A stretch of DNA of 64,000 nt, taken from the NCBI GenBank assembly GCA_965203775.1, contig OZ241913.1:2832015-2896014 (forward strand), written 5' to 3'. The stretch is from Dehalococcoidia bacterium (GTDB lineage: Bacteria; Chloroflexota; Dehalococcoidia; Bin125). Position numbers and translations under genes: made by a program. Positions within the stretch are counted from its first letter, which is position 1, and each line of letters starts with the position of its first letter. A model generated the notes under the pieces. The model had not been told where the DNA came from. It did no database searches and saw only the letters and a list, made by a program, of their open reading frames with translations. This document shows, in pieces, positions 3,935-48,719 of this stretch.

Positions 3935-6900
3935 TTAATCGCGGTCGTTGCGGCGCTGGCTCTTTTCTCCGTCGTCGGTGAAGACGACGCGGGATTTCTT
4001 GCCGCCGTGGATTTGGGGTTCCCGGGCGAGCTTGCGGCGGAGCAGGTCAATGGGGCCGTCGGGCTCGCAGAGGGAGGCGGGCCGGCCGAGGACGTCGACG
4101 AGCAGGCGGCGGTCCAGCTCTGCGCGGGCCGGGCCTTCGTCGATCTGGTCGAACGGGAGGAAGCGGAACTCGCGCATCGCCTCGCACGCCTTGCGGGCGG
4201 CGGCGTGCTGCTCGTCGGTGAGCGCACGGGTGTCGAGCGTGGGAATGTTGGGAATTGAGGTGACGGTCACCGTACCGCGTCCGCTTTGCGACTTGTTCGA
4301 CGACCACCAGTACAAGAGCAGGCCGAGGGTGGAGTTGCACCAGAGCGAGAACGCGTACTCGTCGTCGCGGCGGGCGAAGACGACGGACGGCCAGGCGCGT
4401 CCGCCGATGCATGGACGGTCCGTCATCGCCACGACGAGCGAGTTGGCGTTGAACTGTAGGTCGCGGTTGACATGCGCGCGTGTGGCCGTCGCCCAGACCT
4501 GCTCCGCTTTCTGGTCGACTTCGGATTGCCGCTGCGGGAACGCCTTGACCTGCCCTTCTGAATCGCTCCCCACAGTGAGCGTCCGTTGCGCAGGGGAGTT
4601 GTGCGACCAGAGCATCGGGTAGGTTGGCACGGCGTTGTACGCCGGCTGCACAAGCTGAAACGGTCCGCGCGGCGAGCCGTCTTTCTGATCGCCGCGGATA
4701 TCCAGGTCGTAAGGTCCTCGCCCTGCAATTTCCCCGATCGGAACAATCGGCAGGGTCATGGATTCCGCAGCCGGCTCGGCCGGCAAGCGCAACAGCCCCT
4801 CCTCCAGAGCGCTCGCAGCGACGGCGAGGTCGAAATCACGGATTCCGGCGATCGGCCATGGTCCTCGTTCGGGCAACCTCGCGGCGATCATCTGGCCAAT
4901 GGCGTCGCCGCCGACGGCAAGCATCGGCTCTTGGATCGCCGCGGCATCGTCGACGGGCGCGGCGCGATCGTCAGCGACGGCGCGCGCGCGATCAATCGCC
5001 CGACCGACCTCAGAAGCCCACGCTTCACTGCGCGGGCGGTTTCGGAGCGCTACGAATGTCCCGCGCGGACGATCGGTCTCCGGCTTTCCCTTTCGCGCGA
5101 TCAGCAGACATTCCGCGATTCCGGTATCCGCAGAGAAGGATCGATCGCCAGATCCGGCGGCGGCGATGGTTACGACGACGATGTCGTGGCACAGGTCGGC
5201 GATAGCGCTCCGCGCTTTCTGCCATGCGCTGCCGCTCAACGCGCTGAGCGGCAGCACCATAGCAAGCGCGCCGTTCTCGCGGAGTTTGCGGAGCGCGAGG
5301 TCTGTGAAGTGGGAAGCCAGGCCGGCGTTGCCGTTGCCCAACCGTTGCTCGCCTGCGACGGCGAGCAGCCGGGCTTGCATGAGGTCGCGCACGTCGGGGG
5401 GCGTGTCGAACGCCGCAAAAGCGGGGTTCGCTACGCCGCGCAGCTCCGCTTCCTGGCCGCCTTGCCGAGTGAACGGCGGGTTCATAATCACGACATCGAA
5501 ACGGCCGTGTCCGATCCGCGACATGAGGTCGGTCACGTCTTCCGGGGCGTACCCACCGGACGTGACCGCGGTTGCGCGACGCAGCAGCCCGGCCTGAATG
5601 CCGTCGGCGAACAGGTCGAGCGAGCCGATGGCCACTCGCTCGCCGTCGAGCTCGTCGCTGAGCGCGCCGTAAGGCATCGTGAGCAAGCTGTCGCCGTTGA
5701 ACGGCGTCTCGGGGTGCGTGCTGGCGAGCATGGATGCGGTCAGGTGGACGGCGATGTTCAGGACATCGACGCCGACCAGGCCGGTCTGCATCATCGCGCC
5801 GTGCAACGCGGCAGGATCGCCTCCGTGCAGCTCGTGGAGTATTGACGTTCGTTGGTAGGCAGCGGCGAGCAGCGTGCCGGTTCCGCAGGCGAAGTCGGCG
5901 ATCTGCACTTCGCGCAGAGAATCCAGGTCGCCCCACTCAGCGCCGCGCGGGGCTCCCCGCGGCGGCAGGGCGAGGCTGGCGAGCAACACCGCCGCCTCCG
6001 GCCGGGTGTAGAATGTCGCCAGGAACTCGCGATCGGCGATCAGGCGCTGAAAAATCACTCCCGTGAGGTCGTGCGAGCGGGTCACGCCGCCCTGTACCAG
6101 CTCCGTCGCCGCATCCCAGAGCGGACCGAGCACCTGTCCGGCTGTCGCGGCGGGCAAGCGCCGCAGAATCGCCCTGGCGGCTGCGAAGATCGGCCAGTAG
6201 TTGACGTTCAGAATGCGCTGCCATTCATCGCTCAGCTCACCCAGGTGGAAGCGGTCGGCGTCCGCACGGAAATCGGAGAGCGGCGCGACGCCGCGCGATG
6301 CGCCGTCCGCGCCGCGCAGTGATTGGACGACCTGGAACGATGAGTCGGAGAGCGCGGCGTGAAAGATCAAGGCGTTGATCAGCACCGTCATCGCCATCCG
6401 TCTGGTCTGTCCCGCCTCGTCGTCCGTCTGGCCGAGCAGTGCGGCGATCTCGGCTCCGACCAACCCGGGCGACCGCGATGGCAGACGCAGCATGAAGCGA
6501 TTCGCTGCCGTTCTGATGCCCTGCTCGAGAATCTCGCTCAGACGTTGCACGTGTTGAGCCGGGACTGAGGCGCGATGAATGAGCATCGCCAGGTCGCGCG
6601 CTGAACCGCGCAGCCAGCCCGAACTCGGAAGCCGCTCAACTGTCCCGCCCGCCGCATCCGTGTAGAGCGCGTATTCGAGCGCGTCGCTGGCTGCCAGGGC
6701 GGCGCGGATTTGGGGGCCGCCGGTCTGCTCGCGCGCATCGGGCGGGTAGACGAGCGCCACGGCGCTCTCGATTGGGCGGCCGGTCTGGTGGACAATTTCG
6801 CCGAGGCGGGCGAGCGCGTCGGTTTCCGCAGCGGCGTGGTTCTCGCGCTCGGCTTCGATCACGACCGGCCAGCCGGCGGGTTCCTCGATCAGGATGTCGG

Positions 6901-8627: not shown

Positions 8628-11537
8628 ATGGCCGCGCAGCCGACCCAGACGACGATGACGATCGAGCCGTCGATGAGCGTCGACGAGTTCGTTGCCAAGT
8701 GGCGCAACGCGGCGCCGCGCGAGCGGGCCAACTCGCAAACTCACTTCAACGATCTCTGCGCCGTGCTCGACGTCGCCACGCCCGTCGAGGAAGACCCCAG
8801 CGGCGAGAGCTACACATTCGAGAAGCACGTCGATCTGCCCGGCGGCGGCAGCGGCGACGCCGATGTCTGGAAGCGCGGGCACTTCGGCTGGGAGTACAAG
8901 TCGGGCGGCAAGAGCCTCAGCGTCGCCTACGAGCAACTGCTGGGCTACCGCGAGGGGCTGGAGAACCCGCCGCTGCTCGTGGTCTGCGACATGAACCGCT
9001 TTGAAATCCATACCAACTTCACCAACACCGAGCCGCGCGTGATCGAGTTCACGCTCAAGCACCTGGAAGAAAATCCCACCCACTACATTCGGCTGCTGCG
9101 CGAGGTGTTTCTCGATCCCGAAGCGCTGCACCCGAATCGCGACCCGCGCTATATCACCGAAACCGCCGCAGCAAAGTTCGGCGAGGTGGCCGAGGCGCTG
9201 CGCGAGCGCGACGGGCACGACCCGGCGCTTGTCGCCCGCTTCCTCAACCGAATCATCTTCTGCTTCTTCGCCGAAAGCGTCGGCCTGTACCGCAATCTGC
9301 GCGGGGCAATCGAGAAGCCGGTCACCGATGTGTTCGACAACATGTCGGCCGACGCGACGCTGTCCAAACGGATCGTGGGGCAACTCTTCGAGGCGATGGC
9401 GGAACGCGACGTGCGCAACTTCGGCGCCTACTACATCCGCTGGTTCAACGGCGGCCTGTTCGACGAAACGGCGGTGCCCGAGACGTTGCAGCTGACGGGC
9501 GATCTGGCGCAGATCATCAACGAGACGGCGGAGTTGAACTGGTCGCGGGTGGATCCGGCGATCTTCGGGACGCTGTTCGAGCGCGGGCTGGATCCCAAGC
9601 GCCGCTCGCAGCTGGGCGCGCACTACACCGATCCGGACAACATCATGCGCGTGGTCGAGCCGGTCGCGCTGCGCCCCCTGCGCCGCGAATTCGACGCGCT
9701 GCGCGCCGAACTCGCGCCCGAACACAGGCTCGAAGACGCGCCGCCGCCCGGTTACGGCGAGAACAGCGCGCTGGCTTTCGAAGCGCCCGACCCCGACTCC
9801 CCCGCCGGGCGCATCCACGCCTTCCACCAACGCCTCGCGGCGGTGCGCGTGCTCGACCCCGCCTGCGGCTCCGGCAACTTCCTCTACATCGCAATGCGCG
9901 AGCTGAAAAACCTCGAACAGGAACTGATCGAGTGGGCGCAGCGCCTGGGCGTCAACGGCTTGCAGCGCCGCATCGGCCCCCAAAACATGCTCGGCATCGA
10001 TATCGACCCGTTCGCCGCCGACCTCACCCGTATGTCGCTCTGGATCGGCTACATCCAGTGGAACATCGAGCGAAACATCGACACCACCCGCGACCCCGTC
10101 CTCGGCCGCGCCGAGCAAATCGAATGCCGCGACGCCATCCTCGCCGAGGATGAGGAGGGCAACCCCATCCCCGCAGAGTGGCCCGAAGCGGAGTTCGTCG
10201 TGGGGAATCCGCCGTTTCTGGGCGGAAACCGATTACGCCGCGAGAGCGGCAATGCGTACGTTGACCGTCTTCAATCTGCCTACGCCAACGCCGTAGGCGG
10301 ACAAGCCGACCTTTGCGTCTATTGGCACGAGAGCGCTCGACGACAGATCGAGCAGCGCGCCACCCGCGCTGCTGGCCTCCTTGCCACGAACAGCATAGGC
10401 CAACCGTACAACCGCAAGGTCCTCGAGAACATCGCATCATCGGGAGGCATGTTCTTCGCGTGGCGTGATGAGCAGTGGTTCGACGACGGTACTGCCGTCC
10501 GCATTGCCATCGTCGGCCAAGACGACGGCAGCGAATCGGAACTCGAGCTCGACGGATCGCCAGTCGCCAAGATCAACCTCGATCTGACCGCAGGCGTCCC
10601 GGTTGCGTCAGCTGTGGAACTGGCTGAAAATTCCTCTATCGCGTTTCGGGGTGTTGGGCCTGCTGGACCATTTGACATCTCCTGGACCATTGCCGGGCGC
10701 ATGCTGGCGCGTCCCGTCAACGTGAATGGACGCCCGAATTCCGATGTGGTGATCCCGTTCGTCAACGCTCAAGACCTGGCGCAGACACGGCGGGGACAGC
10801 ACGTCATCGACTTCGGTCAGAGTACATCTATCGAAGACGCGGCTGACTATGAGGAGCCGTTCGAGTACGTGAGGCGACACGTTCTGCCGCGCCGCAAGCG
10901 CAGCAGGAACGACCAACTGCGCAACCAATGGTGGCTCCACGAGGCTTGGCGTCCCGGGATGCGCAAGGCGATCCAGCCGCTCAGTCGCTTCATTGCCACG
11001 CCAGTGACTTCCAAGCACCGCTTCTACGTGTGGCTGGATGCTGGCACACTGCCTGCCAGCTCAGTCAACGTCATAGCTCGTGACGACGACTACATATTCG
11101 GGGTTCTGCACTCGCGAATCCACCACGTTTGGGCTCTTGCGCAGGCAACACGCCTCGGTGTCGGGCCAGCAGACTCCCGCTACATCCACACTCGGTGCTT
11201 CAACACATTTCCGTTCCCTTGGCCACTGACGGCGTCCAACGATGATCTTACGGCCACTCAGCGACGGCAGCACAAAGCGATCTCCGCCGCGGCTGCATCG
11301 TTGGACGCAGCACGCACCCAATGGCTTAACCCCAGTGATGCGCCAGCGGAGCTCGTGCAAGAGCGCACGATGACCGACCTCTACAACGACACCGAAAAAG
11401 ATCCTCGCCCAAAGTGGCTGACCAACAGGCACCAGGCGATCGACAAAGCAGTGGCAGCCGCCTACGGCTGGCCCGCCGACCTGCCGGATGATGAAATCCT
11501 GTCCCGCCTGCTAGCCCTGAATCTGGAGCGCGCCTGA
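8628..11537 (+). CDS. MmeI-family type IIL restriction-modification enzyme (fused PD-ExK nuclease + gamma N6-adenine MTase + TRD), 969 aa
   Basis: Colinear with MmeI: nuclease D..EYK (HVDLPGG...FGWEYKSGGK vs MmeI VDLFW...LIEMKSRG); helical region (RIIFCFFAESVG); motif X (PAIFGTLFERGLDPKRRSQLGAHYTDPDNI vs PAIFGSLFQSIMDAKKRRNLGAHYTSEANI); motif I (VLDPACGSGNFL); motif IV (VVGNPPFLGG); C-terminal TRD. The start lies 8 bp after the gatB stop. Confidence 0.85.
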   Translation: MAAQPTQTTMTIEPSMSVDEFVAKWRNAAPRERANSQTHFNDLCAVLDVATPVEEDPSGESYTFEKHVDLPGGGSGDADVWKRGHFGWEYKSGGKSLSVAYEQLLGYREGLENPPLLVVCDMNRFEIHTNFTNTEPRVIEFTLKHLEENPTHYIRLLREVFLDPEALHPNRDPRYITETAAAKFGEVAEALRERDGHDPALVARFLNRIIFCFFAESVGLYRNLRGAIEKPVTDVFDNMSADATLSKRIVGQLFEAMAERDVRNFGAYYIRWFNGGLFDETAVPETLQLTGDLAQIINETAELNWSRVDPAIFGTLFERGLDPKRRSQLGAHYTDPDNIMRVVEPVALRPLRREFDALRAELAPEHRLEDAPPPGYGENSALAFEAPDPDSPAGRIHAFHQRLAAVRVLDPACGSGNFLYIAMRELKNLEQELIEWAQRLGVNGLQRRIGPQNMLGIDIDPFAADLTRMSLWIGYIQWNIERNIDTTRDPVLGRAEQIECRDAILAEDEEGNPIPAEWPEAEFVVGNPPFLGGNRLRRESGNAYVDRLQSAYANAVGGQADLCVYWHESARRQIEQRATRAAGLLATNSIGQPYNRKVLENIASSGGMFFAWRDEQWFDDGTAVRIAIVGQDDGSESELELDGSPVAKINLDLTAGVPVASAVELAENSSIAFRGVGPAGPFDISWTIAGRMLARPVNVNGRPNSDVVIPFVNAQDLAQTRRGQHVIDFGQSTSIEDAADYEEPFEYVRRHVLPRRKRSRNDQLRNQWWLHEAWRPGMRKAIQPLSRFIATPVTSKHRFYVWLDAGTLPASSVNVIARDDDYIFGVLHSRIHHVWALAQATRLGVGPADSRYIHTRCFNTFPFPWPLTASNDDLTATQRRQHKAISAAAASLDAARTQWLNPSDAPAELVQERTMTDLYNDTEKDPRPKWLTNRHQAIDKAVAAAYGWPADLPDDEILSRLLALNLERA

Positions 11538-11586
11538 CGATCCAGGACCCATGTGTTCCGCCAGCCACACTGTCTCACTTTGACGA

Positions 11587-12654
11587 TCAGGCAGGCTGCC
11601 GCTGATCTCTAATCGTCCAGCTCTCCACATAGGCGCGGGTGTCCGATTCCAAATGGACGACAAGTTCGCCATTATCGTTGAGGTAGCACCCACCATCCAG
11701 ATCACGGTGTACTCGCCCGCCTACCAGGCTGCCATCGTGGCATTCGCTGGCGGCTTGCAAGACATGTTGCTCGTATCCGGTGAGCCAGCCAGAGTCCTTA
11801 GTTCTGTGGGCCGCAGCAAAGCGGGTCGCGATAGCCCAGCAACCTGGCGTTTCGTAGTTGAAGGGATGGAAGGGCCGTTCGCGAATCTTGCCGAATCCAG
11901 GAGATTCGCCAATCTCGCGTAGGTCGACTGCCCAAGCTGGAACGACATCAGTAGGGTGCTCTAGGCTGGGAAATGAGAGCGAGTAAGAAGAGCGCTTCGC
12001 CGCCACCAAGATGAACATGTCCGGGATACAGTCAAACTGCTCCAAGCGTGCATCGACGGGGTTCGAGTTAACAGCAAGGTCGCGGAACTGACCGTCCGCA
12101 CTAAGCTTGATGGGGTTGAAGCGGTGGGTCTTGCGAAGCCTCCCGTGCCCACAAAAGAGCGCAAGCTCTTCTTGAGTACGGTTCCAAAACAGGTACTCTG
12201 CTGGTTCCGTGGCCCAGTCAAGCAAGTTCTCGTCGAGATTCATGTCGTCGTCGTCGTCCTTTGACATGAATACGTGCGGCCTATTCGGAGACCGATCCAG
12301 ACGTGGCTCGCTGTGGCGATTGTCACCGAGTACCACTCGATAGTCCGTCGCCAGATGCGTTTCCGGCGCAGGGCTAGAATGGCGATACTCGTTCACTGCC
12401 CGAACGGTCACCACAACCTCAGCAGGATCAACATCCGGTACTCGTACGACTACCGCGTGGTAGGTGTATCCCCAATGCACACGCTCGTTCGGAACGTCAC
12501 ACCAGTCGTCCTGTACTCCGTTGACGCGAAGGCGGATGCTGTACCCGAGTAAGCGACCGCCGACTGGCTTGTTCCAGAACACGAGCTGGTGCTTTCCATC
12601 AATCGCGCGAGCGCGCAGATTGCGGATAACCGGGCGAACCTTCGTGATATCCAC
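11587..12654 (-). CDS. hypothetical protein, FN3-like N-terminal segment plus unknown ~250-aa domain, low-GC gene
   Basis: A 355-aa ORF convergent with the type IIL gene. GC is ~52-55% against ~70% background. The peptide is non-repetitive and contains an acidic DDDDD linker. Confidence 0.55.
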   Translation of the reverse strand: MDITKVRPVIRNLRARAIDGKHQLVFWNKPVGGRLLGYSIRLRVNGVQDDWCDVPNERVHWGYTYHAVVVRVPDVDPAEVVVTVRAVNEYRHSSPAPETHLATDYRVVLGDNRHSEPRLDRSPNRPHVFMSKDDDDDMNLDENLLDWATEPAEYLFWNRTQEELALFCGHGRLRKTHRFNPIKLSADGQFRDLAVNSNPVDARLEQFDCIPDMFILVAAKRSSYSLSFPSLEHPTDVVPAWAVDLREIGESPGFGKIRERPFHPFNYETPGCWAIATRFAAAHRTKDSGWLTGYEQHVLQAASECHDGSLVGGRVHRDLDGGCYLNDNGELVVHLESDTRAYVESWTIRDQRQPA

Positions 12655-12990
12655 CTATCCGCCCTTTTCGGTTGAAGACTCAGAGTCGAGGCAGGCGGGT
12701 GTCGTATCGGCTACCGACGCGCGCAGCCCCGGCATCATCTCCTCCGGCGTCTTCCCCGTCAGGTCGAAATACACCCGGTCGGGGCAGATATCGAGCTCGT
12801 CGCTCCAGCCGATCGCGCGAAACGGTGTGATGTGAACCCGCTCGAAGAACGCTCGGTCCTCCCAGACTTTGAAGACGCCCCGGCCCGCCACATCGCTCAG
12901 GTCGACCTCGCCGGAAGCGCCGTCGTCGTACTCGACGTAGATGCGGTAGCCCTCGCGCGGCTCGACCTTGAGCAGTTTCGGCATCGCCAT
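12655..12990 (-). CDS. DUF2442 domain protein
   Basis: VEPREGYRIYVEYDDGASGEVDLSD...GVFKVWED...FERVHI...AIGWSDELDICPD is the DUF2442 consensus. ATG at 12990. Confidence 0.75.
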   Translation of the reverse strand: MAMPKLLKVEPREGYRIYVEYDDGASGEVDLSDVAGRGVFKVWEDRAFFERVHITPFRAIGWSDELDICPDRVYFDLTGKTPEEMMPGLRASVADTTPACLDSESSTEKGG

Positions 12991-13031
12991 AGTGTCCCCA
13001 GTCTAGCGCGCCGCTGCCAAAGCGGCAGAGT

Positions 13032-18184: not shown

Positions 18185-18189
18185 TCCAT

Positions 18190-19105
18190 CCACGCCACAC
18201 CCTCCGTCGCCACTGTGTCTTCCCACCGTCAATTCCTACACCGCCTCCGTTCTCAATTCCTGCCTCTCTTCCGCCATCAATTCCTGCACCGCCTCCGCCA
18301 CCAAATTCTGCCCCTCTTCCGCCATCAATTCCTGCACCCCCTCCGCCATTCCTGCCCCTTCCCGTCATTCCTGCGACCCTTCCGTCATTCCTGCGCAGGC
18401 AGGAACCACCCCACACCCCCACTTCCCCCAAATCCTGCTATGCTCACAACAGAACAGGAGTGCCGAACCATGCCTCTCTCCCCACAACAACGCCGCCGCG
18501 CCCCTCTTCCGTCATTCCTGCGCAGGCAGGAACCCAGCCCCACCTCACCCTCTCCCTTCCCCAATTCATCCCTCCCCCCTTTTAGGGGGAGGTTAGGTGG
18601 GGGGTGGGAACTTGCGAGCGCGTAAGAGGGTGCTGCGGCAGAGGCGCTCGCTCGGCCGCCAGCGCCGGCTCGGTGCGCCGACCCCCTCTTAGTCTCTCCC
18701 CTGGAAGGGGGGAGAGATGAATTGGGGCGCTTGCGCTCCTGCCGTCGTTCCTGCCTGCGCAGGAATGACGGAAGAGAGGGGCGTAGGAATCGGAAGTGGC
18801 GGGGCGCAGGAATGACGGATAACGGGGCGGGAATAACGGAAGTAGCGTTCGAGGCGTAGAACAGCGGTCGCTGCCTCATCGTTACTTCCCACCCCCCACC
18901 TAACCTCCCCCCTAAAAGGGGGGAGGGATGAATTTTTCTTGGGGTAGGTGTTTTGGTGTTTGGTTTGCGTGTTTGCGCGTCCGCGTGCGTCCGCGTGTGC
19001 GCACTCCTTTTCCTGGATCTTCCTCCATTCCGGTCCCTCCCCCCTTTTAGGGGGGAGGTTAGGTGGGGGGTGGGATGCACCGAGCGCGCACAGCGATCGC
19101 CCCCC
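18190..19105. repeat. intergenic repeat island (family-A TTCCTGCCTGCGCAGGAATGACGG units plus family-B hairpin elements)
   Basis: Multiple copies in both orientations of ccgtcattcctgcgcaggcaggaa and of cccaccccccacctaacctcccccctaaaaggggggagggatgaatt. Tracker ORFs here translate to SFLRRQE/VIPAQAGT artefacts. Confidence 0.8.
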
Positions 19106-19110
19106 CCCCC

Positions 19111-19521
19111 TCACGGCTGCGCGCCTAGGTCGAACCAGGCGTGGGTGGCGCCCAGGTCGTAGCCTCTGAGCCAGCCTTCTTGGCGGGCGTGCTCGATCAG
19201 CGGAGCGAGGCCGCGGATGAGGTCGCGGCGGCCGGCCAGCGCGCCGGCGATTAGGCCGGAGGGATTGGGCAGATAGTCGAGCGTGGGCGCGGCGCTGGTC
19301 GCCAGCAGGCCGCGCGCGTAGCCCTGCTGCTCGCGCTCGTCGGCTTCGAGCCGCATGCGCTGCTCGGCGGCCTCCGCGCCGGCGGACCAGCCCGACTCGC
19401 GGGCGGCGTTGAGGTCGGCCTGGGTGGGGCCGCGCTCGAATGCGCCGCTCAGCCCGCCGATTAAGGCGGCGGCGGCCGCGCCCAGGATGAAGGCGGCGAG
19501 CAGCAGCGCGGCGCGGCTCAT
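19111..19521 (-). CDS. hypothetical membrane-anchored protein (136 aa), paralog of the upstream gene
   Basis: MSRAALLLAAFILGAAAAALIGG... is a signal/TM segment, followed by a GPTQADLNAA motif. The ATG overlaps the stop of the upstream paralog (ATGA). Confidence 0.5.
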   Translation of the reverse strand: MSRAALLLAAFILGAAAAALIGGLSGAFERGPTQADLNAARESGWSAGAEAAEQRMRLEADEREQQGYARGLLATSAAPTLDYLPNPSGLIAGALAGRRDLIRGLAPLIEHARQEGWLRGYDLGATHAWFDLGAQP

Positions 19522-20051
19522 CTCGCGCCCGCTTCCGCGTCGCCCGACGGCGCTGCGGGCGAGCTTGCGGGCGCTCTTGAGGGCGCTCTTGAGGGCGATC
19601 TTGAGGGTGGGGCGGCGCCGATCCGCTGCCAGGCGGCGCGGTAGCCCTCGCGCCAGCCCTGATCCCAGGCTTCGGCCAGCTCGCGCTCGGCGAGGGCCTG
19701 CGCCGCGTCGTAGGCCGCTTCGTAGGTGAAGCCGTGGCGGAAGCGATCCATCGCTTCGGGCGTGACCTGCGAGGCGACGCTGCGCCCATGCGCGAAGCCG
19801 ACCAGCTCGCGCCGCTCGAGCTCGGCCTGCCACTCCGCCTCGGTCGCGGCTGCGCCGTCTTCCACGCCGCGCCGGAAGGCGGCGTCGACATCGGCCTGAG
19901 TCGGGCCGTCGTCGAACCAGTCGGTGCCAAAGCCGAGCGTGAGGGCGAGGGCCGCGCCGGCCAGGCAGGCGGCGGCGAGCCAACGGCGGGGCGTCGGCGG
20001 GCGCGCCTCGGGCTCGCGCTCCAGCTCGCGCCAGCCGGCCCCCTGCGCCAC
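19518..20051 (-). CDS. hypothetical membrane-anchored protein (177 aa), paralog of the 19111..19521 gene
   Basis: Hydrophobic LAAACLAGAALALTLGF followed by GPTQADVDAA. The 3' end carries a 12-bp tandem repeat encoding (ALKS)n. Confidence 0.5.
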   Translation of the reverse strand: MAQGAGWRELEREPEARPPTPRRWLAAACLAGAALALTLGFGTDWFDDGPTQADVDAAFRRGVEDGAAATEAEWQAELERRELVGFAHGRSVASQVTPEAMDRFRHGFTYEAAYDAAQALAERELAEAWDQGWREGYRAAWQRIGAAPPSRSPSRAPSRAPASSPAAPSGDAEAGAR

Positions 20052-20054
20052 CGG

Positions 20055-21272
20055 TCAAGCTCCCGAGGCGGCCAGCGCCGGGTTGGGCCGCGTCCAACCC
20101 CTCATCCGACCGAAGAGCAGCGAAACGAGCGCGAAGACGGAGAACACGGCGGCCGCCCAGAAGACCATCTCGACCGAGAGCAGCGCGCCGACGACGGCGA
20201 AGATCGGCCCGGCGACGAAGCCGCCGATGTCCCAGGCGAGCTGGAAGGTGGCGGTCGCGCCGCCGCGCTGGTTGGCGGCGACGCGGTCGACCGCCAGCGC
20301 GAGCAGCCCGGTGTGCGCCGCGCCCATGCCGATGCCGGTCAGCGCGCCGGCCGGCATCAGGGTCAGGGGCGAGTCGGCCTGGGTCAGCAGCACCAGCCCG
20401 GCGACCGTCGCAATCAGCCCGGGGATGATCACCGGCACGCGCCCGACGATGTCGGAGACGCGCCCGGCGATCGGGCGGGTGACCATCGCGCCCGCGCCGC
20501 TGAACAGGAAGAAGAAGATGCCGATGCCCTCGACGCCGCCGAAATTGCGGTCCGGGTCGGCGTTCTCCAGCGAGGGCAGGAAAGCCGCGGCGACGCTGAA
20601 GGTGAGCGTGATGCTGAGGAAGACGAACATGGGGAAGACGGCCGGCGGCGGCACCAGCGAGCGCAGCGAGAGCGGCGGCGGTGGGCGCCCCGAGCCGGCC
20701 GGCTCGCGCTTGAAGAAGGTCAGCCCGAAGGACGCGGCGGCGGTGGCGACGGCGAGGATCAGCACGGCGTCGAAGCCGCCCAGATAGGCGAAGACGACCC
20801 CGCCGAGCATCGGCAGCAGCGTCTGCGCCGCCGAGGTCGAGAGCCCGAAGAAGCCCAGCCCCTCGCCGCGGCGGGGAATGGGCACGATCTCCGCGACGAA
20901 CGATCCGGCCGCGGTGGGGTAGGCGGCCATGCTGATCCCATGCACGCAGCGCAGCGCGAAGAGGATCCAGATGTCCTCGACGAAGATCATCAGCGCGAAG
21001 GATGCGGCGAAGGAGAGCAGCCCGATGCGCATCAGGCGGATGCGCCGCCCGGCGTCGCTCCAGCGCCCGACGAAGGGCCGCAGGAAAATCGGGATCAGGT
21101 TGTAGCCGCCGACGATCAGCCCGATTTCGAGCACGGTCGCGCCGCGCTCGACCAGCTCGCCGGGCAGCGTCGCGGTCAGGTAGAAGAAGCAGGCGAAGAA
21201 GGAGAAGGTGCCGAGCAGGGCTAGCAGGTACTGGTTGGTCCAGAGTTTGGGCCGCTGGCCGCGCAGCCGCAC
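20055..21272 (-). CDS. MFS transporter
   Basis: Twelve predicted TM segments (LLALLGTFSFFACFFY, GLIVGGYNLIPIFLRPFVGRWSD, ...). Proposed GTG start giving (M)RLRGQRPKLWTN. The upstream tracker extension is Arg-rich junk overlapping the DUF3090 gene. Confidence 0.65.
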   Translation of the reverse strand: MRLRGQRPKLWTNQYLLALLGTFSFFACFFYLTATLPGELVERGATVLEIGLIVGGYNLIPIFLRPFVGRWSDAGRRIRLMRIGLLSFAASFALMIFVEDIWILFALRCVHGISMAAYPTAAGSFVAEIVPIPRRGEGLGFFGLSTSAAQTLLPMLGGVVFAYLGGFDAVLILAVATAAASFGLTFFKREPAGSGRPPPPLSLRSLVPPPAVFPMFVFLSITLTFSVAAAFLPSLENADPDRNFGGVEGIGIFFFLFSGAGAMVTRPIAGRVSDIVGRVPVIIPGLIATVAGLVLLTQADSPLTLMPAGALTGIGMGAAHTGLLALAVDRVAANQRGGATATFQLAWDIGGFVAGPIFAVVGALLSVEMVFWAAAVFSVFALVSLLFGRMRGWTRPNPALAASGA

Positions 21273-24140: not shown

Positions 24141-24149
24141 CGAACGATG

Positions 24150-24600
24150 CCCCCGTCATTCCTGCGCAGGCAGGAACCTGCGCCCTTCTCCGTCATTCCT
24201 GCGCAGGCAGGAACGCGCAGGCAGGAATGACGGAATGGAGCAGGGGCGGCCACTCGGCCGCTGGTAGATGCTCGGTGCGTCGCACCCCCCACCTAGCCTC
24301 CCCCCTAAAAGGGGGGAGGGATGAATTGGGGAAGGGGGAGAGGGGGTGCGTGCGTGCGCGGGAATGACGGCTTGCGCGGTTCCTGCCTGCGCAGGAATGA
24401 CGGAAAGGGTGGGCAGGAATGACGGAATGGAGCAGGGGCGGCCGCTCGGCCGCTGGTAGACGCTCGGTACGTCGCACCCCCCACCTAGCCCCCCCCTAAA
24501 AGGGGGGAGGGATGAATTGGGGAAGGGGGAGAGGGGGTGCGTGCGTGCGCAGGAATGACGAGAGGGGCGCGGGTTCCTGCCTGCGCAGGAATGGCGGGAG
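24150..24600. repeat. intergenic repeat island (two near-identical ~200-bp blocks, family A + family B)
   Basis: 24160-24360 and 24360-24560 are near-duplicates containing ccgtcattcctgcgcaggcagga... and cacccccccacctagcctcccccctaaaaggggggagggatgaattgggga. Confidence 0.8.
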
Positions 24601-24612
24601 CGCGGACGGGCG

Positions 24613-25284: not shown

Positions 25285-25429
25285 GGCGGTCGCTCCAAGA
25301 GCGAGATTATGAGCCAAACGGCAAGTGGTCAAGCCCGCGCGCCACAAAGCCGCGGGAGCTTGCCGGCTCACCCCAAGCCTCCACTCGCCCCTTCCCCAAT
25401 TCATCCCTCCCCCCTTTTAGGAGTCTCCT

Positions 25430-25522
25430 GCAAAATGCCCAATTTCGGCGGATCCGCCGATCAGGCTCTATCTGGTCGGCACCCGCGTGCAGGCCCCAGA
25501 TCTGCCTTTTGCAGGAGACTCC
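25430..25522. other. ~93-nt structured element X1, inserted in the loop of a family-B hairpin (candidate ncRNA or novel MITE)
   Basis: Perfect 16-bp terminal inverted repeat ggagtctcctgcaaaa/ttttgcaggagactcc. The core cccaatttcggcggatccgccgatcaggctctatctggtcgg is shared with X2 at 39322..39425. It is flanked by a duplicated cttttag. Confidence 0.5.
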
Positions 25523-25612
25523 TTTTAGGGGGGAGGTTAGGTGGGGGGTGGGAGGTAGCGAGTGGGCGCACCGATCGTGTCCGCTCCTCCGACCCCCAAG
25601 GGTTTCGCAATT

Positions 25613-25750
25613 CCGTCATTCCTGCGCAGGCAGGAACGCGCGCTAGGTGCGGCCTCGTCCTGCGATGGGCGTTCGGCGGGCCGTCGCGGGATGCGCAGCG
25701 CATGCAGGCGCTAGCGGCCGCCCCCATTCCTGCCTGCGCAGGAATGACGG
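25613..25750. mobile_element. MITE-1 copy a (138 bp, family-A 25-bp terminal inverted repeats)
   Basis: ccgtcattcctgcgcaggcaggaac + ~90-nt internal (gcgcgctaggtgcggcctcgtcctgcgatgggcgttcggcgggccgtcgcgggatgcgcagcgcatgcaggcgctagcggccgcc) + ttcctgcctgcgcaggaatgacgg. Two more copies at 37589..37727 and 38795..38933. Confidence 0.7.
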
Positions 25751-26628
25751 GATGGGGGGGCGCAGGAATGACGGAGGGGGAGGAGAGGGGGTAGGAATGC
25801 TGGAGGTGGGGTGGCGTGGTTCCTGCCTGCGCAGGAAATGACGGCTTGCGCGGTTCCTGCCTGCGCAGGAATGACGGGAGGGGGGACGCAGGAATGACGG
25901 GAGTGTGGATGCGCTCTGGAGGGGTGCGGGGAGGAGAGCGTGGGCGGCCACTCGATCGCTGGTGGCGGCTCGGTGCTTCCCACCCCCCACCTAGCCTCCC
26001 CCCTAAAAGGGGGGAGGGATGAATTGGGGAAGGGGGGAGAGGGGTGGGGGTGGTTCCTGCCTGCGCAGGAATGACGGGTGGCGCGGTTCCTGCCTGCGCA
26101 GGAATGACGGAAAGGGGGGGGGGGGGGGCGCGGGAATGACGAGTGAAGGGGGGCGAGGGATGTACGGATGGTGGCCGCTCGGTGCCTCCCACCCCCCACC
26201 TAACCTCCCCCCTTTTAGGGGGGAGGGATGAATTGGGGAAGGGGGAGGGTGGGTGGTTCCTGCCTGCGCAGGAATGACGGTTTGCGCGGTTCCTGCCTGC
26301 GCAGGAATGACGGAAGGGGGCGCGCAGGAATGACGGAAAGGGGGGCGCAGGAATGACGGGAGTGTGGATGCGCTCTGGAGGAGTGGGGGGAGGAGTGTGG
26401 GCGGCCACTCGATCGGTGGTGGCGGCTCGGTGCTTCCCACCCCCCACCTAGCCTCCCCCCTAAAAGGGGGGAGGGATGAATTGGGGAAGGGGGGGTTCCT
26501 GCCTGCGCAGGAATGACGGGCGCGCCGCCGCGCCCACTCCTGCGCTTGCGCGGTTCCTGCCTGCGCAGGAATGACGGGAAGAGGGGCGCACGAATGACGG
26601 GCGCGCCGCCGCGCCCCCCACTCGCGGG

Positions 26629-29955: not shown

Positions 29956-30099
29956 CCACGCTCCTCACACCGGCCGGCGCCGCATCGGGGCAACGCCGGC
30001 TGTACGGCAGACTCAGGCAGGATACAGCATCCCCGCCAGGCAGGCGCAACGCGCCAACTCCACTATGTCCGCAGGCTACAGCCCCAATCGGCAGCCCCC

Positions 30100-30640
30100 C
30101 CCCCCCCCGGCGAGATTTGACACTCTCTTTACACCGTTCCGCCACTCCCTACTTCCCGCTCTCCCCTCCCCCAATTCATCCCTCCCCCCTTTTAGGGGGG
30201 AGGTTAGGTGGGGGGTGGGAAGCCCCGAGCCGGCGCTGGCGGCCCTCTTGCACCGCGATCGCCTCGCCCGCGTTCCTGCCTGCGCAGGAATGACGAGTGG
30301 GGGGCGCAGGAATGACGGGCGGGCGCGGTTCCTGCCTGCGCAGGAATGACGGAGGAGGGGCGTGGGCGGCCACTCGATCGCTGGTGGACGCTCGGTGCCT
30401 CCCACCCCCCACCTAACCTCCCCCCTAAAAGGGGGGAGGGATGAATTTTCTTGGGGTAGGTGTTTTGGGGTGGGGAGGTGCTTGGTGTGCTGCGTGTGCG
30501 GTTCCTGCCTGCGCAGGAATGACGGAGGGGGCGCAGGAATGACGGAAGTGTGGAGCGCAGGAATGACGGGCGGGCGCGGCGGGTTCCTGCCTGCGCAGGA
30601 ATGACGGAGGAGGGGCGCAGGAATGACGGGAGTTTGGACA
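30100..30640. repeat. intergenic repeat island
   Basis: Family-B hairpins at ~30180 and ~30400 and family-A units throughout. Contains a poly-C/G run at 30100-30115. Confidence 0.8.
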
Positions 30641-30644
30641 GGCG

Positions 30645-31166
30645 CTAGCCGGCGGATGCTTCGGCCTCCTGCTCGCGGCGGTCGGCGCAGCGTCGGGCGG
30701 CGCGGCGGTAAGGCTGGTTGTCGGGCGGAGCGAGGTCGAGCGGCAGCGTGCGGTGGGCGTCGTCGAGCATTGCGCAGAAAGACTGGATGGTCGGCACCCA
30801 GAAGCGAATGTCATCCGGGTACTGAAGGTCGTCGTAGAAGTTCAGGTGCAGCCGTTCGGCGGCGGCGAAGCTGCGGCTGAGCTCGGGCGAGTCTGTGCCG
30901 AGCGCCTCGTCGATGCGCCGCACCAGCTGGTGGGCGATGCCGTGCTCGCAGTAGTACCACTCGCGGGCGTCCGCGAACACTCTGAGCCGGCGAGTGACTG
31001 CGCCCCACAATTTCTCGCACACTTGGGCGCGGAGTTCGCCGTCAATCTCTACATCCGGCCGCGCGAGGATCTCTTCTGCGGCGGCGAGCAGTCCGTCGCT
31101 GGTGCGGAGGTGCGGCTCAATCGGTGGCTGGGGCGGGCGGTAGGGGATTGGTTCGGGGGTGGGCAT
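30645..31166 (-). CDS. paralog-array protein 1 (173 aa), uncharacterized family with HEPN-like R-x6-H motif
   Basis: MPTPEPIPYRPPQPPIEPHLRTSDGLLAAAEEILARPDVEIDGELRAQVCEKLWGAVTRRLRVFADAREWYYCEHGIAHQLV.... Its start shares 1 nt with the stop of the upstream paralog (TAATG). Confidence 0.7.
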   Translation of the reverse strand: MPTPEPIPYRPPQPPIEPHLRTSDGLLAAAEEILARPDVEIDGELRAQVCEKLWGAVTRRLRVFADAREWYYCEHGIAHQLVRRIDEALGTDSPELSRSFAAAERLHLNFYDDLQYPDDIRFWVPTIQSFCAMLDDAHRTLPLDLAPPDNQPYRRAARRCADRREQEAEASAG

Positions 31167-31678
31167 TACTGCGCCTCCTGCGCGCGCCGGTCGGCGCAGC
31201 GTCGGGCGGCGTTGCGGTAACGCCGGCTGCTGGGTGGGGCCAGGTCGAGCGGCAGCCTGCGGTGGGCATCGTCAAGCATCGCGCAGAGGATCTGAACGAT
31301 TGACATCTGGCGACGGATCGCCGCCGGCTCCAGAAGGTCGTCATAGAAATTTCTATGCAGCTGTTCGGCGACGGCAAAGCCGCGGGTGAGTTCGGGCGGA
31401 TCGGGCTCAAGCGCCTCGTCAATGCGATCCACCAGATCGGCCGCGACGCCGTGTTCGCAGTAGTACCACTCCCGCGCATCCGCGAAGACCCGCAGGCGGC
31501 GAGTGACGGTGCCCCACAGTTTTTCGCAGGCTTGGGCGCGGAGTTCGCCGTCGATCTCGTCGTCGGGGCGGGCGAGGATCGCCTGCGCGGCGGCGAGCAG
31601 GCCGTCGCTGGTGCGGAGGTGCGGCTCGATGGGCGGCTGGGGCGGGCGGTAGGGGATTGGTTCGGGGGTGGGCATCAC
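31166..31678 (-). CDS. paralog-array protein 2 (170 aa)
   Basis: ~75% identical to array protein 1. Translationally coupled (GTGA/ATGA overlaps) on both sides. Confidence 0.7.
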   Translation of the reverse strand: MMPTPEPIPYRPPQPPIEPHLRTSDGLLAAAQAILARPDDEIDGELRAQACEKLWGTVTRRLRVFADAREWYYCEHGVAADLVDRIDEALEPDPPELTRGFAVAEQLHRNFYDDLLEPAAIRRQMSIVQILCAMLDDAHRRLPLDLAPPSSRRYRNAARRCADRRAQEAQ

Positions 31679-32208
31679 GTCGCCTCCTGCGCGCGCTGGG
31701 CCTCCTCTTGCGCGCGCCGGTCGGCGCAGCGGCGGGCGGCGCGGCGGTAAGGCTGGTTATCGGGCGGGGCGAGGTCGAGCGGCAAGGTGCGGTGGGCGTC
31801 GTCGAGCATCGCGCAGAGGGTTTGGACATTCGGCATCCGGAGGCGAATGTCATCCGGGTGCTGAAGGTCGTCGTAGAAATTCACGTGCAGTCGTTCGACG
31901 GCTTCGAATCGGAAGAGGAGTTGAGGCGGATCGACGCCGAGCGCCTCATCGATGCGATTCACCAGTTGATGCGCGATGCTGTGTTCGCAGTAGTACCACT
32001 CGCGGGCGTCGGCGAACACCCGCAGGCGGCGGGTGACGGCGCCCCAGAGCTTTTCGCAGGCCTGGGCGCGGAGTTCGCCGTCGATTTCGTCGTCGGGGCG
32101 GGCGAGGATTGCTTGGGCTGCCGAGAGCAGGCCGTCGCTGGTGCGGAGGTGCGGCTCGATCGGTGGCTGGGGCGGGTGGTAGGGGATTGGTTCGGGGGTG
32201 GGCATCAT
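31675..32208 (-). CDS. paralog-array protein 3 (177 aa)
   Basis: Same family, with a 4-nt start/stop overlap. Confidence 0.7.
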   Translation of the reverse strand: MMPTPEPIPYHPPQPPIEPHLRTSDGLLSAAQAILARPDDEIDGELRAQACEKLWGAVTRRLRVFADAREWYYCEHSIAHQLVNRIDEALGVDPPQLLFRFEAVERLHVNFYDDLQHPDDIRLRMPNVQTLCAMLDDAHRTLPLDLAPPDNQPYRRAARRCADRRAQEEAQRAQEAT

Positions 32209-32717
32209 CGCGCCTCCTGTGCGCGCCGCTCGGCGCAGCGGCGGGCGGCGCTCTTGTAGCGGCTGTTGTCGGGCGGGGCGAGGTCGAGCGGCAATGTGCG
32301 GTGGGCGTCGTCGAGCATCGCGCAGAAGGACAGCACGCTCCGCATCCGGAAGCGAATGTCATCCAGGTCCATGAGGTCCTCGTAGAACCCCTCGCGGTGC
32401 AGCCGTTCGGCGCTGTCGAATCTTTCGACGAGTTCGGGCGGATCGAGATCAAGCGCCTGGTTGATGCGATTCACCAGCTGGCGTGCGATGCTGTGTTCGC
32501 AGTAGTACCAGCGGCGCGCGTCGGCAAACACCCTGAGGCGGCGGGTCGCCGCGCCCCACAATTTCTCGCACACTTGGGCGCGGAGCTCGCCGTCGATTTC
32601 GTCGTCGGGGCGGGCGAGGATTGCCTCGGCGGCGGCGAGCAGGCCGTCGCTGGTGCGCAGGTGTGGCTCGATGGGCGGGCGGGGCGGGTGGTAGGGGATT
32701 GGTTCGGGGGTGGGCAT
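32205..32717 (-). CDS. paralog-array protein 4 (170 aa), first gene of the array
   Basis: Same family (MPTPEPIPYHPPRPPIEPHLRTSDGLL...ARRWYYCEHSIARQLV). It is preceded by a repeat island. Confidence 0.7.
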   Translation of the reverse strand: MPTPEPIPYHPPRPPIEPHLRTSDGLLAAAEAILARPDDEIDGELRAQVCEKLWGAATRRLRVFADARRWYYCEHSIARQLVNRINQALDLDPPELVERFDSAERLHREGFYEDLMDLDDIRFRMRSVLSFCAMLDDAHRTLPLDLAPPDNSRYKSAARRCAERRAQEAR

Positions 32718-32749
32718 CGCTGCTCCTGTTCGGCAGGGCGCATGGGCAG

Positions 32750-32890
32750 CGTATCACCGCGCGTTCCTGCCTGCGCAGGAATGACGGGGAGGAGGGGCAG
32801 GAATGACGATTGGGGGGCGCGGGTTCCTGCCTGCGCAGGAATGACGGGGAGGGGCGCGCGGTTCCTGCCGGCGCAGGAACCAACGGAGGC
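32750..32890. repeat. short repeat island (family-A units)
   Basis: Four family-A copies: gttcctgcctgcgcaggaatgacgg. Confidence 0.8.
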
Positions 32891-32894
32891 GTCC

Positions 32895-33251
32895 CTAGCC
32901 CCCGCCGCGCGCAATCAGCCAGCCGAGCATGGCGAGGTTGGACCCTGCCAGCAGACCAACCGCCCAAGTCAGCATCGTGAAGCGGCGGTCGGTGCTCTCT
33001 TTGAAGTCGTCGAAGCGTTGGTTGACGTTTTCCTTGAAGTCGCTGAAGCGTTGCCCCAGAGCTTTCTGCTCCTGCTCGAGGACGATCAGGTGCTGCTCAA
33101 CACCGTTGAGGCCCTGCTCAAGGTCCTTCTGGCCCTGGCGCAGATCGCGCAGGCCGTCGTCAAGGTGCGTGAAGCGCCGGTCGAACTCCGCCGAGCGGCG
33201 CTCGAATTCGTCGCGGTGGACGAAGGGGGGTTGCTCTTCTGCGGTGACCAT
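32895..33251 (-). CDS. hypothetical tail-anchored coiled-coil protein (118 aa)
   Basis: Internal RF(S/D)DFKE(N/S) repeats, then a C-terminal TM helix WAVGLLAGSNLAMLGWLIARGGG. Good codon usage. Confidence 0.5.
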   Translation of the reverse strand: MVTAEEQPPFVHRDEFERRSAEFDRRFTHLDDGLRDLRQGQKDLEQGLNGVEQHLIVLEQEQKALGQRFSDFKENVNQRFDDFKESTDRRFTMLTWAVGLLAGSNLAMLGWLIARGGG

Positions 33252-33254
33252 GAG

Positions 33255-33665
33255 CGAAGCATAGCAGGGCTGGGGGTTCCTGCCTGCGCAGGAATGACGG
33301 GGAGGGGGCGCGGGAATGACGGGGAGGGGGCGCAGGAATGACGGGTGGGGCGCGCGGTGGCCACTCGATCTCTGGTGGACGCTCGGTGCCTCCCACCCCC
33401 CACCTAACCTCCCCCCTAAAAGGGGGGAGGGATGAATTGGGGAAGGGGTGGGGAGGGGGTGGGTGGGTGCGCGGTTCCTGCCTGCGCAGGAATGACGAAG
33501 TGGGGCGCAGGAATGACGGAGGGGGGGCGCGGTTCCTGCCTGCGCAGGAATGACGGGAGGGGGGCGCGGTTCCTGCCTGCGCGGTTCCTGCCTGCGCAGG
33601 AATGACGAAGTGCGGGGATGACGGGTGGGGGTGGGTTATAGTAAACTGGCTGGCAGATTTCGCTC
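33255..33665. repeat. intergenic repeat island
   Basis: One family-B hairpin (~33400) flanked by family-A units. Confidence 0.8.
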
Positions 33666-33688
33666 TGCGCGTGTAGGGAGGCATTGCC

Positions 33689-37249: not shown

Positions 37250-37254
37250 GGGGG

Positions 37255-38005
37255 GGTCATTCCTGCGCCTCTCTCCGTCATTCCTGCGTAGGCAGGAACC
37301 CCCCGATCGCCCCCGCACCCGTCATTCCTGCCTACGCAGGAATGACGGGCGATTTCCCCAATTCATCCCTCCCCCCTTTTAGGGGGAGGTTAGGTGGGGG
37401 GTGGGAGGCCGCGAGCGAGCGCCGGCCGCCCGTTCGCGCCGCGCTCGCTTCCCCCCGTTCCGTACATTCCTGCCCCTTCTCCCCGTCATTCCTGCGCAGG
37501 CAGGAACCCGCGCGACCCCACCGTCGTACTCCTCCCCCCTCCGTCATTCTGCGCCCCTCCCCCGTTCCGTACATTCCTGCCCCCCTCTCCGTCATTCCTG
37601 TGTAGGCAGGAACGCGCGGTGGGTGCGGCCTCGTCCTGCGGTGGGCGTTCGGCGGGCCGCCGCGGGATGTGCGGCGCATACGGGCGCTAGCGGCCGCCCC
37701 CCATTCCTGCCTACGCAGGAATGACGGAATAGGCGATCGGGGTACAGAAGAGCGGCCGGCAAACGCTCGCACCTCCCACCCCCCACCTAACCTCCCCCCT
37801 TTTAGGGGGGAGGGATGAATTGGAGAAGTCAACCGTCATTCCTGCGTAGGCAAGGAGCCAGGGGAGGGGTCGCGCGGTTCCTGCCTGCGCAGGAATGACG
37901 GTGGGGTCGCGCAGGTTCCTGCCTGCGCAGGAATGACGGTGGGATCGCGCAGGTTCCTGCCTGCGCAGGAATGACGGGAGTCTGGACACGCCCTAGCCGG
38001 GGGAG
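37255..38005. repeat. intergenic repeat island (includes MITE-1 copy b at 37589..37727)
   Basis: Family-B hairpins at ~37370 and ~37790; family-A units; a MITE-1 with a TIR variant (cctgtgtaggcaggaac). Confidence 0.8.
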
Positions 38006-38009
38006 GCCA

Positions 38010-38507: not shown

Positions 38508-38529
38508 ATCGCCTCCTGTGTATGGCGCA

Positions 38530-46329: not shown

Positions 46330-46334
46330 CAGCC

Positions 46335-46690: not shown

Positions 46691-46726
46691 ACGCGCCAGC
46701 GGCGATACGCTGCGGGCGAGGACCAA

Positions 46727-47995: not shown

Positions 47996-48044
47996 GGCCC
48001 GTTCACACTTCCGCCAGCCCGCGCTCGCCACAGCCATCTCGCCG

Positions 48045-48584: not shown

Positions 48585-48719
48585 TGGATCGGTTTCCTTA
48601 CCTGGCGCTGTCGCGCGGCTTACGCCGCGTAGTTCGGATTTCGCATACGCTCGCAGGATACGCGCAGGCGCGCCGCAGGTCTGCGGGCGCGTTCGCCCGC
48701 AGTGGGGAGCGGAGACCGC

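Follow-up and report, generated by a model that had tools for sequence, protein, structure and literature searches.

In 2025, Chenal et al. described the SsnA/SRM system, for the most part in Pseudomonadati (Nat Commun; PMC11893778). SsnA is a 94-aa single-domain GIY-YIG enzyme, and its cognate site is NTS (CGTCATTCCCGCGMAVGCGGGAATCYRG), a 28-nt oriented hairpin of which the Neisseria repeat dRS3 is the core. SsnA binds NTS solely as sense-strand single-stranded DNA (ssDNA), cuts a few nucleotides upstream and does not bind RNA; the upstream GTC is critical for cleavage and the C after the palindrome for binding (PMC11893778). Homologs of ssnA in many phyla are flanked by NTS-like motifs named SRM, which follow the published pattern HGTCWYN(0-2)YYVSBRHN(0-5)WNVSBRGN(0-2)RNCYNB, and 81% of the genomes with more than 200 SRMs have ssnA (PMC11893778). 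Here, we analysed a 64,000-nt stretch of DNA, called the window below, from a Dehalococcoidia bacterium of the Chloroflexota (contig OZ241913.1, positions 2,832,015 to 2,896,014), in which an earlier note, made from the letters alone, had seen two families of intergenic palindromic repeats, A and B. Our main conclusion, to which we give a probability of roughly 0.8, is that family A is a Chloroflexota version of the NTS/SRM hairpin, cognate to a putative SsnA encoded outside the 64-kb window.

Two further described systems are close to these repeats. Neisseria genomes of 2.2 Mb carry several hundred dRS3 units. These take part in Neisseria intergenic mosaic elements (NIMEs), in which, as in the window, an inverted-repeat unit of about 20-26 bp alternates with spacers of 50-150 bp; in both, the intergenic arrays concentrate near variable or surface genes and where synteny breaks. 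The window differs in its phylum, in its spacer modules (B, C1 and C2, see below) and in its much higher local density of 59 units in 64 kb. Repetitive extragenic palindromes (REPs) and bacterial interspersed mosaic elements (BIMEs) of E. coli, Pseudomonas and Stenotrophomonas are likewise intergenic palindrome mosaics that can yield spurious open reading frames (ORFs), and they have a domesticated ssDNA-hairpin-recognising enzyme, the REP-associated tyrosine transposase (RAYT), whose gene is flanked by the repeats.

Family A resembles the NTS hairpin of Neisseria

Both families lie far above chance in the window. The family-A 26-mer GGTTCCTGCCTGCGCAGGAATGACGG gave 56 matches at up to three mismatches and none in 100 shuffles, and 59 units at up to four mismatches; the family-B core was found at about 24 loci with none expected, and a loose search with a 52-mer gave 25 B units. 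On a gene map guided by GC content at third codon positions (GC3) and confirmed by Pfam, none of the 59 A copies lies inside a gene. The repeats are confined to ten intergenic regions, which sum to 9,594 bp (15.0% of the window, as the earlier note had estimated), plus a solitary A at 472-497; according to self-BLAST, 7.8-8.1 kb of these regions, or 12-13% of the window, is covered by repeats. The earlier count of seven islands, for which 11 intervals had been listed, is replaced by these ten. Copies occur in both orientations, some of them overlapping or nested (for example at 37321-37346), and folding bore out both the inner palindrome of A and, for B, a G/C stem of 10 bp closed by a loop of 3 nt.

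Like NTS and SRM (PMC11893778), which occur in hundreds of intergenic copies, family A has a CGTCAT flank, a hairpin of 7-8 bp with a 4-nt loop of the GCAG/GMAV type, a C that directly follows the palindrome and an asymmetry between its strands, and it is clustered around surface or accessory genes. Its sense strand, CGTCATTCCTGCGCAGGCAGGAAC, is identical to NTS at about 25 of 28 positions, counted by eye, and the two differences in the stem form one compensatory pair, C:G to T:A. In DNA folding, the best family-A hairpin was TTCCTGC/GCAGGAA, with a 7-bp stem and a 4-nt loop (-7.2 kcal/mol, z = -2.8), and the Neisseria NTS gave an 8-bp stem with a 4-nt loop (-8.9 kcal/mol). When the published SRM pattern was relaxed at the two positions of the compensatory pair, it matched 38 times in the window against 0.9 expected. 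Both critical positions are retained: CCGTCAT precedes the stem in all 38 of these copies and is invariant in the module alignment, and all abundant variants in the window read ...GCAGGAA(C/T)C.... Judged by its sequence, family A belongs to the system described in 2025, in a high-GC Chloroflexota host that is absent from the main text of that paper, and it would extend the SsnA/SRM system to such hosts at a local density of about 0.9 hairpins per kb.

The A core is widespread and its density is lineage-specific

The 22-nt core TTCCTGCCTGCGCAGGAATGAC was scanned exactly against the genome collection; the counts are lower bounds. It was found at at least 111 loci in at least 10 phyla, with GC contents of 30-70%, where a single lineage had been expected. 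The listed loci include Flavobacteriia, Planctomycetota, Chloroflexota, Alpha-, Beta- and Gammaproteobacteria, candidate phyla radiation (CPR)/Patescibacteria, Spirochaetia, Nitrospirota, Ignavibacteriota and others. The usual form at these foreign loci is tGGATTCCTGCCTGCGCAGGAATGAC, and nearby hairpins share its flanks while their stems covary. In the 804 kb of foreign loci there were 216 perfect 8-bp hairpins anchored by GTCA against 0-7 for control anchors; with the fetched variant excluded, 64 hairpins with 28 distinct compensated stems remained, most of them followed by C. Since this stem variant of at least 10 phyla escapes the published pattern, the prevalence of SRM is probably underestimated.

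We compared the window with high-GC 'Dehalococcoidia' (Chloroflexota) metagenome-assembled genomes (MAGs), among which HpaB homologs with 86-94% identity place the source organism. In these relatives, the density of A around the orthologous HpaB gene is 0-0.21 per kb; the window has about 0.9 per kb, so that the density is strongly lineage-specific. Gene order is shared only from HpaB to LonN and breaks where island 2 begins. In the nearest relatives with chromosome-level sequences, at least four A-bearing loci lie on OZ244584.1 (at 1.05, 1.06, 1.31 and 1.57 Mb), at least two on OZ241849.1 (0.42 and 1.50 Mb) and at least two on OZ242281.1 (1.20 and 1.76 Mb). Being hundreds of kb apart on these chromosomes, they are therefore not a local duplication, which agrees with the suggestion that A is a genome-wide family. 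On OZ241849.1, locus L003 (4057-4510) also holds a second SRM-type hairpin, GTCATACCCGCGCTCGCCGCGGGTAT, in four copies at 134-159-bp spacing; together with A and full-length B in the same genome, this shows that one genome can carry several hairpin 'dialects'.

A GIY-YIG nuclease gene recurs beside the motif

Unbiased clustering of the ORFs within 600 bp of the motif at the 111 listed loci ranked a GIY-YIG family first, and no transposase or RAYT cluster appeared. With a hidden Markov model (HMM) built from motif-adjacent proteins, a GIY-YIG gene of 95-109 aa was found in 9 of the 111 listed foreign loci. For six full-length genes the distance to the motif was measured, and it is 43-156 bp. 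In the Chloroflexota loci L072 and L122-L128, a 97-aa GIY-YIG gene occupies a conserved syntenic site with A hairpins on both sides, their CGTCAT ends pointing outward, and after the right-hand hairpin follows an array of tandem half-hairpins (half-units, see below) as in the window; L128 has the exact A 26-mer of the window. The 97-aa protein is 55% identical to the gonococcal SsnA ortholog (E = 5e-35, against a BLAST threshold of E < 1e-10 for homologs of Neisseria SsnA), and the catalytic residues Y6, Y17 and E64 are invariant in the seven SsnA sequences aligned. The gonococcal ortholog has 94 aa, carries Y6/Y17/E64 as described (PMC11893778) and lies inside an NTS/dRS3 mosaic of identical architecture, including the polarity of its half-units. 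Its source (L129, NZ_CP119140.1) is a 2.17-Mb replicon of Neisseria gonorrhoeae that is filed as 'plasmid', is essentially unannotated and is evidently the chromosome. Upstream of ssnA in L128 (3640-4000) there is a tandem duplicate of the hairpin, the promoter-like region and the first ssnA codons (ATGCCGAAACAGCCTGCC), followed by half-units; the cassette of ssnA is itself duplicated locally. A search of 50,697 phage records yielded no SsnA-like gene, and a sequence search of the PDB gave no structure related to the Chloroflexota protein.

The earlier note had implied a RAYT/IS200 association, and family A could accordingly be a classical REP/BIME that is maintained by a RAYT (an IS200/IS605-like Y1 transposase) encoded elsewhere. 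The elements are indeed intergenic and palindromic, occur in both orientations and are arranged as mosaics, and the Ssn paper itself draws the analogy with REP/RAYT (PMC11893778). However, the hallmark 5' GTAG tetranucleotide, the guide of REPs, is absent and the conserved flank is CGTCAT; Pfam detected no RAYT, transposase or other mobile-element gene in the window; it is a GIY-YIG and not a HUH/Y1 cluster that stands beside the motif at the 111 listed loci; and it is exactly these hairpins that flank the GIY-YIG gene of Chloroflexota. We therefore find a RAYT-maintained REP hardly credible. What stands of the REP-like description is that two true hairpin families form REP/BIME-like mosaics; the motif is not a GTAG-type REP and is better read as an SsnA-cognate NTS/SRM.

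Two candidate traces of ssnA in the window were rejected. The left edge of the window (A at 472 and a luciferase-like gene) shares no synteny with the ssnA locus of the relatives. Likewise, the island spacers are not ssnA-deleted cassettes: with the hairpins masked, similarity to the ssnA cassettes was confined to the half-unit arrays and there was none to the gene body or promoter.

Half-units, inverted pairs and tandem modules

A half-unit consists of the CGTCAT flank and the 5' arm of A. Outside full A copies, 41 half-units (GCGCAGGAATGACGG) occur in the window where chance predicts none, in arrays with a period of 20-24 nt; the perfect array at 48173-48267 has 4.8 copies of a 20-nt unit, in line with the tandem half-units reported before, and two arrays consist of the variants GGAGTGACGG and CCGTCATACCCG. 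These half-units are polar. On the sense strand, 39 lie upstream and 14 downstream of a hairpin in the window, and in foreign loci of several phyla the ratio is 17 to 0, the favoured side being that of the SsnA cut. Besides the window, polar half-units were seen next to ssnA in Chloroflexota and Neisseria as well as in Alphaproteobacteria, Planctomycetota, Spirochaetia and CPR. In its main text, the Ssn paper does not use the word 'tandem' and is silent on half-unit polarity, on tandem duplication of super-modules and on family B (PMC11893778). The present analysis adds the widespread variant that escapes the published pattern, the polar half-unit arrays and a second, co-amplified hairpin family; the polarity across phyla is a testable clue to the origin of SRM repeats, a question that the paper leaves open.

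Moreover, 12 pairs of A(-)...A(+) with outward CGTCAT ends were found in the window. Some of them form MITE-like modules (after miniature inverted-repeat transposable elements) with interiors of 91-96 bp, namely C1 at 25613, 37589 and 38795 and C2 at 60219, 60941 and 61599. The configuration matches the hairpin-ssnA-hairpin arrangement of other genomes. Such pairs could also be terminal inverted repeats of true MITEs, mobilised by a transposase that targets or carries the hairpin, for example of the IS110 or IS630 family. In the relatives, every A seen was one of a discrete inverted pair, its partner lying 115-150 bp away, and the intergenic gap that holds one of these pairs is far shorter in three further relatives; however, the alignment of this paired unit (L115) with the three empty-looking sites had 49% column identity, and no target-site duplication or boundary was resolved. 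Neisseria dRS3 is a known phage recombinase target (PMC11893778). In the Caldilineaceae MAG H76_764, an inverted A pair with a 47-bp spacer is present in many contigs (L005, L006, L027, L038, L047, L075, L084, L088, L091, L094 and L097), several of which start or end at the pair; this is a high-copy MITE-like unit that fragments the assembly. Against mobilisation speak the interiors of the paired units, which show no relationship from one genome to the next and belong to two families in the window, the lack of any associated transposase at the 111 listed loci, and the single copies, half-unit arrays and tandem full units, which cut-and-paste does not explain. The MITE explanation is, in our judgement, quite improbable.

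The islands also grow by tandem duplication of super-modules. Island 10 (2.3 kb) consists of about three tandem copies of a 660-724-bp super-module, in which 60248-60547 and 60972-61271 are 100% identical over 300 nt, and in islands 2 and 3 modules of hairpin, half-unit and B (A-a-B) of 190-250 bp are repeated. A 13-nt tandem repeat, CTTGGGGTAGGTG, follows a T-tailed sub-variant of B in the super-modules of island 10, at 60614-60735 (9.5 copies) and at 61338-61427 (7 copies).

Family B is a lineage-restricted hairpin

The description of B as a stem-loop holds, but the unit is longer than had been noted, at about 85 nt, and its left flank is conserved. It comprises this flank (...GCTCGGTGCCT), an outer 5-bp stem, the 10-bp G/C stem, the 3-nt loop and the right flank GATGAATTGGGGA; a representative full unit of about 82 nt lies at 33367-33448 on the + strand. 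Judged by eye, B is mostly co-oriented with the neighbouring A. In the DNA examined, the only other place with full-length B was L003, from a Dehalococcoidia MAG of 70% GC in which A is present as well. The exact B 30-mer had no match in the metagenomes, where a looser pattern found four contigs with the bare hairpin core only, for which reason we regard B as lineage-restricted. Neither a GIY-YIG gene nor another associated gene was found beside B at these loci. Rfam gave no match at gathering thresholds and only chance miRNA matches at E <= 1. B may be interpreted as a lineage-specific spacer module that is co-amplified with A, like the RS elements of NIMEs.

Two local variants of B were observed. 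In a symmetric variant at 48074-48140, the right half faces its own reverse complement (TCCCCAATTCATCCC), repeated in tandem as 2.5 perfect copies with a period of 15 nt; this B half-unit array (48074-48113) is analogous to the half-unit arrays of family A. At 39323-39424, a 102-bp element that is single-copy in the window splits the loop of a B unit. With its imperfect terminal inverted repeats of about 28 bp (CAGACYTTCGCG.AACCCC...) and a 7-bp duplication (CTAAAAG), it looks like a MITE with a target-site duplication.

Gene context and points against the assignment

Three of the ten islands lie between convergent, five between tandem and two between divergent genes, and eight contain at least one gene 3' end. 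The earlier statement that the islands fall almost only between convergent or terminating genes is therefore only partly right, being overstated in view of the two divergent regions. Between 24.1 and 39.5 kb, each intergenic gap is an island, and these islands bracket L25, a 1108-aa Big_1 protein, four PaREP1-like paralogs, an 1186-aa protein and a fifth PaREP1-like gene. The giant Big_1 protein, the 1186-aa protein and the paralog array are thus flanked on both sides, as proposed before. The five paralogs, three of which were checked with Pfam, have 165-177 aa (30645-32717 and 38010-38507).

Several observations weigh against the assignment of family A to an SsnA system in this organism. Neither a regular expression, nor an HMM from six motif-adjacent GIY-YIG proteins, nor tblastn with three Chloroflexota SsnA sequences detected an ssnA gene or remnant in the window (nothing better than E = 0.5); because the window is without ssnA, a cognate nuclease in the source organism is something that we infer. 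Moreover, none of the SsnA homologs found was placed on the chromosomes of the nearest relatives. The strict published SRM pattern has no match in the window. Set against the 38 matches of the relaxed pattern, this means that A escapes the published census and is a variant that it would miss, and it does so because the pattern is narrow, not because the architecture differs. Most A copies in the window end in GGAAC and not GGAAT, with a weaker outer base pair, which is a difference from NTS. Family B, which reads ...AATTCAT-CCCTCCCCCC-TTTTA-GGGGGGAGG-TTAGG, has TTCAT before the stem and T after it and thus meets none of the SRM flank rules (GTC before, C after). Finally, 43 of the 59 A copies have their sense strand on the coding strand of the nearest gene, as have 30 of the 34 at gene 3' ends, numbers that are indicative only, as copies are non-independent through tandem duplication. 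This 30:4 bias could reflect an RNA-level or transcription-coupled role instead.

In that case, the repeats would be 3'-UTR stabilisers, terminators or insulators, and the link with SsnA would be incidental here. Besides the strand bias, which is inflated by the tandem copies, the presence of gene 3' ends in eight islands and the terminator-like score of the T-rich-tail sub-variant of B would fit such a role. Yet terminator-like sites are not enriched (15 against 9.5 +/- 3.5 expected), most B and all A copies have no U-tract, and two islands lie in divergent promoter regions. From 18 to 38 kb, only two B copies score as terminators, both of this sub-variant, and one of them is on the wrong strand for both neighbours; B as a canonical intrinsic terminator, which the earlier note had raised, is accordingly not supported. 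No Rfam family matches, and SsnA does not bind RNA (PMC11893778). A role in RNA or transcription thus appears very improbable, and we retain the assignment of A to the NTS/SRM hairpins.

Of the ORFs of at least 150 aa, 15 lie mostly within islands. They are probably spurious, as had been suspected; the single one that was tested, at 60816-61463, had no Pfam match. Recognising such islands improves the annotation of environmental genomes, in which they produce spurious ORFs and broken MAG assemblies.

A proposed model for family A

We propose that A, 5'-CGTC-ATTCCTGC-GCAG-GCAGGAA(T/C)-C-3', is a strand-specific ssDNA hairpin that serves as a signal for SsnA binding and cleavage, and that it has accumulated in intergenic DNA as NIME/BIME-like mosaics. 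These take three forms: single hairpins; inverted pairs with outward CGTCAT ends that enclose 90-150 bp, as in MITEs; and hairpins preceded on the cleavage side by tandem copies of their own 5' half. Family B, about 85 nt long, is interleaved with A and would have the role of the 'RS' spacers of Neisseria NIMEs, and entire A-a-B super-modules, duplicated in tandem, enlarge the islands still more. By analogy with Neisseria, SsnA encoded by the source organism would bind the hairpin whenever the sense strand becomes single-stranded, in incoming DNA, the lagging-strand template or repair intermediates, and would nick it a few nucleotides upstream. Such nicking is predicted to shorten recombination tracts and to limit the recombination of repeat-bearing DNA, and the accessory cassettes (the Big_1 giant protein, the PaREP1-like array and the 1186-aa protein) may be bracketed as 'repeat-gene-repeat' units.

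As for the half-units, the most plausible trigger, though a speculative one, would be an SsnA nick followed by slipped repair that duplicates the 5' half. A bolder version, in which the polar half-units are footprints of SsnA-triggered nick-and-slip repair, the nuclease thereby seeding and expanding its own repeats, and in which family B is the site of a second putative hairpin-specific enzyme, we consider unlikely. If nick-and-slip were true, SsnA-SRM would be a self-propagating, hairpin-templated repeat system that is mechanistically distinct from transposition.

The ten islands

Island 1 (18185-19110) lies between the convergent genes RlmN (forward) and hyp328 (reverse) and has three A, three to four B and degenerate half-unit arrays at 18229-18394. 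It contains a representative A unit at 18382-18407 (+ strand), which reads CCGTCATTCCTGCGCAGGCAGGAACC in NTS sense and has two half-units upstream at 18343-18376. The adjoining 328-aa ORF (19111-20097) has no Pfam match and fails the GC3-based coding filter, so that gene content is uncertain here.

Island 2 (24141-24612), between LonN (forward) and L25 (reverse) and also convergent, has five A, two B and a 191-192-bp super-module that occurs twice; synteny with the relatives stops here. Island 3 (25405-26628), between L25 and Big_1 (tandem, both reverse), has nine A, three B, C1 at 25613-25750 and super-module periods of 209 and 248 bp. Between Big_1 and a PaREP1-like gene, again in tandem and both reverse, island 4 (29956-30644) has four A, two B and a half-unit array at 30511-30629. 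Island 5 (32718-33688) separates a reverse PaREP1-like gene from the forward, divergent gene of the 1186-aa protein; its six A and one B leave 32890-33255 as non-repeat sequence.

Island 6 (37250-38009) follows the gene of the 1186-aa protein and meets a convergent, reverse PaREP1-like gene. It has ten A, five in each orientation, two B and C1 at 37589-37727, as well as a symmetric A that reads as sense on both strands (37321-37346) and 38-nt tandem full units (37866-37977). Island 7 (38508-39540), between a reverse PaREP1-like gene and the divergent, forward M48 gene, has eight A, two intact and one interrupted B, C1 at 38795-38933 and an array of the first variant half-unit (GGAGTGACGG) at 38944-39042. 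The next two islands lie in tandem context between forward genes: island 8 (46330-46861), between a carboxyltransferase gene and PBP, has two A, one B with a GGAA loop and an array of the second variant (CCGTCATACCCG) at 46532-46670, and island 9 (47996-48701), between PBP and ABC, has one A followed by the 4.8 perfect half-units and the symmetric B variant with its 15-nt tandem units. Island 10 (60089-62369), between DUF2442 and hyp520 (tandem, both reverse), has ten A, seven B and C2 at 60219-60360, 60941-61084 and 61599-61742.

Other features of the window

The solitary A at 472-497, antisense on the + strand, is directly followed by a 17-nt tandem repeat (GAAGTGCGAACAGGCCC; 497-632, eight copies, 93% match) that is unrelated to A and B. 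From the metallophosphoesterase gene to GatB (4228-6709), 2.5 kb has no confident gene, and gene content is uncertain. The stretch at 8628-13002 has a lower GC content (59-62% against about 69%) and carries the genes of an MmeI-type restriction-modification enzyme (969 aa) and of a 355-aa protein that has no Pfam match, as well as a DUF2442 gene; it is probably a defence islet gained by horizontal transfer. Three tandem paralogs of the Uma2 family (putative restriction endonucleases), of 215 aa each, lie at 53959-56013 and have no bracketing islands.

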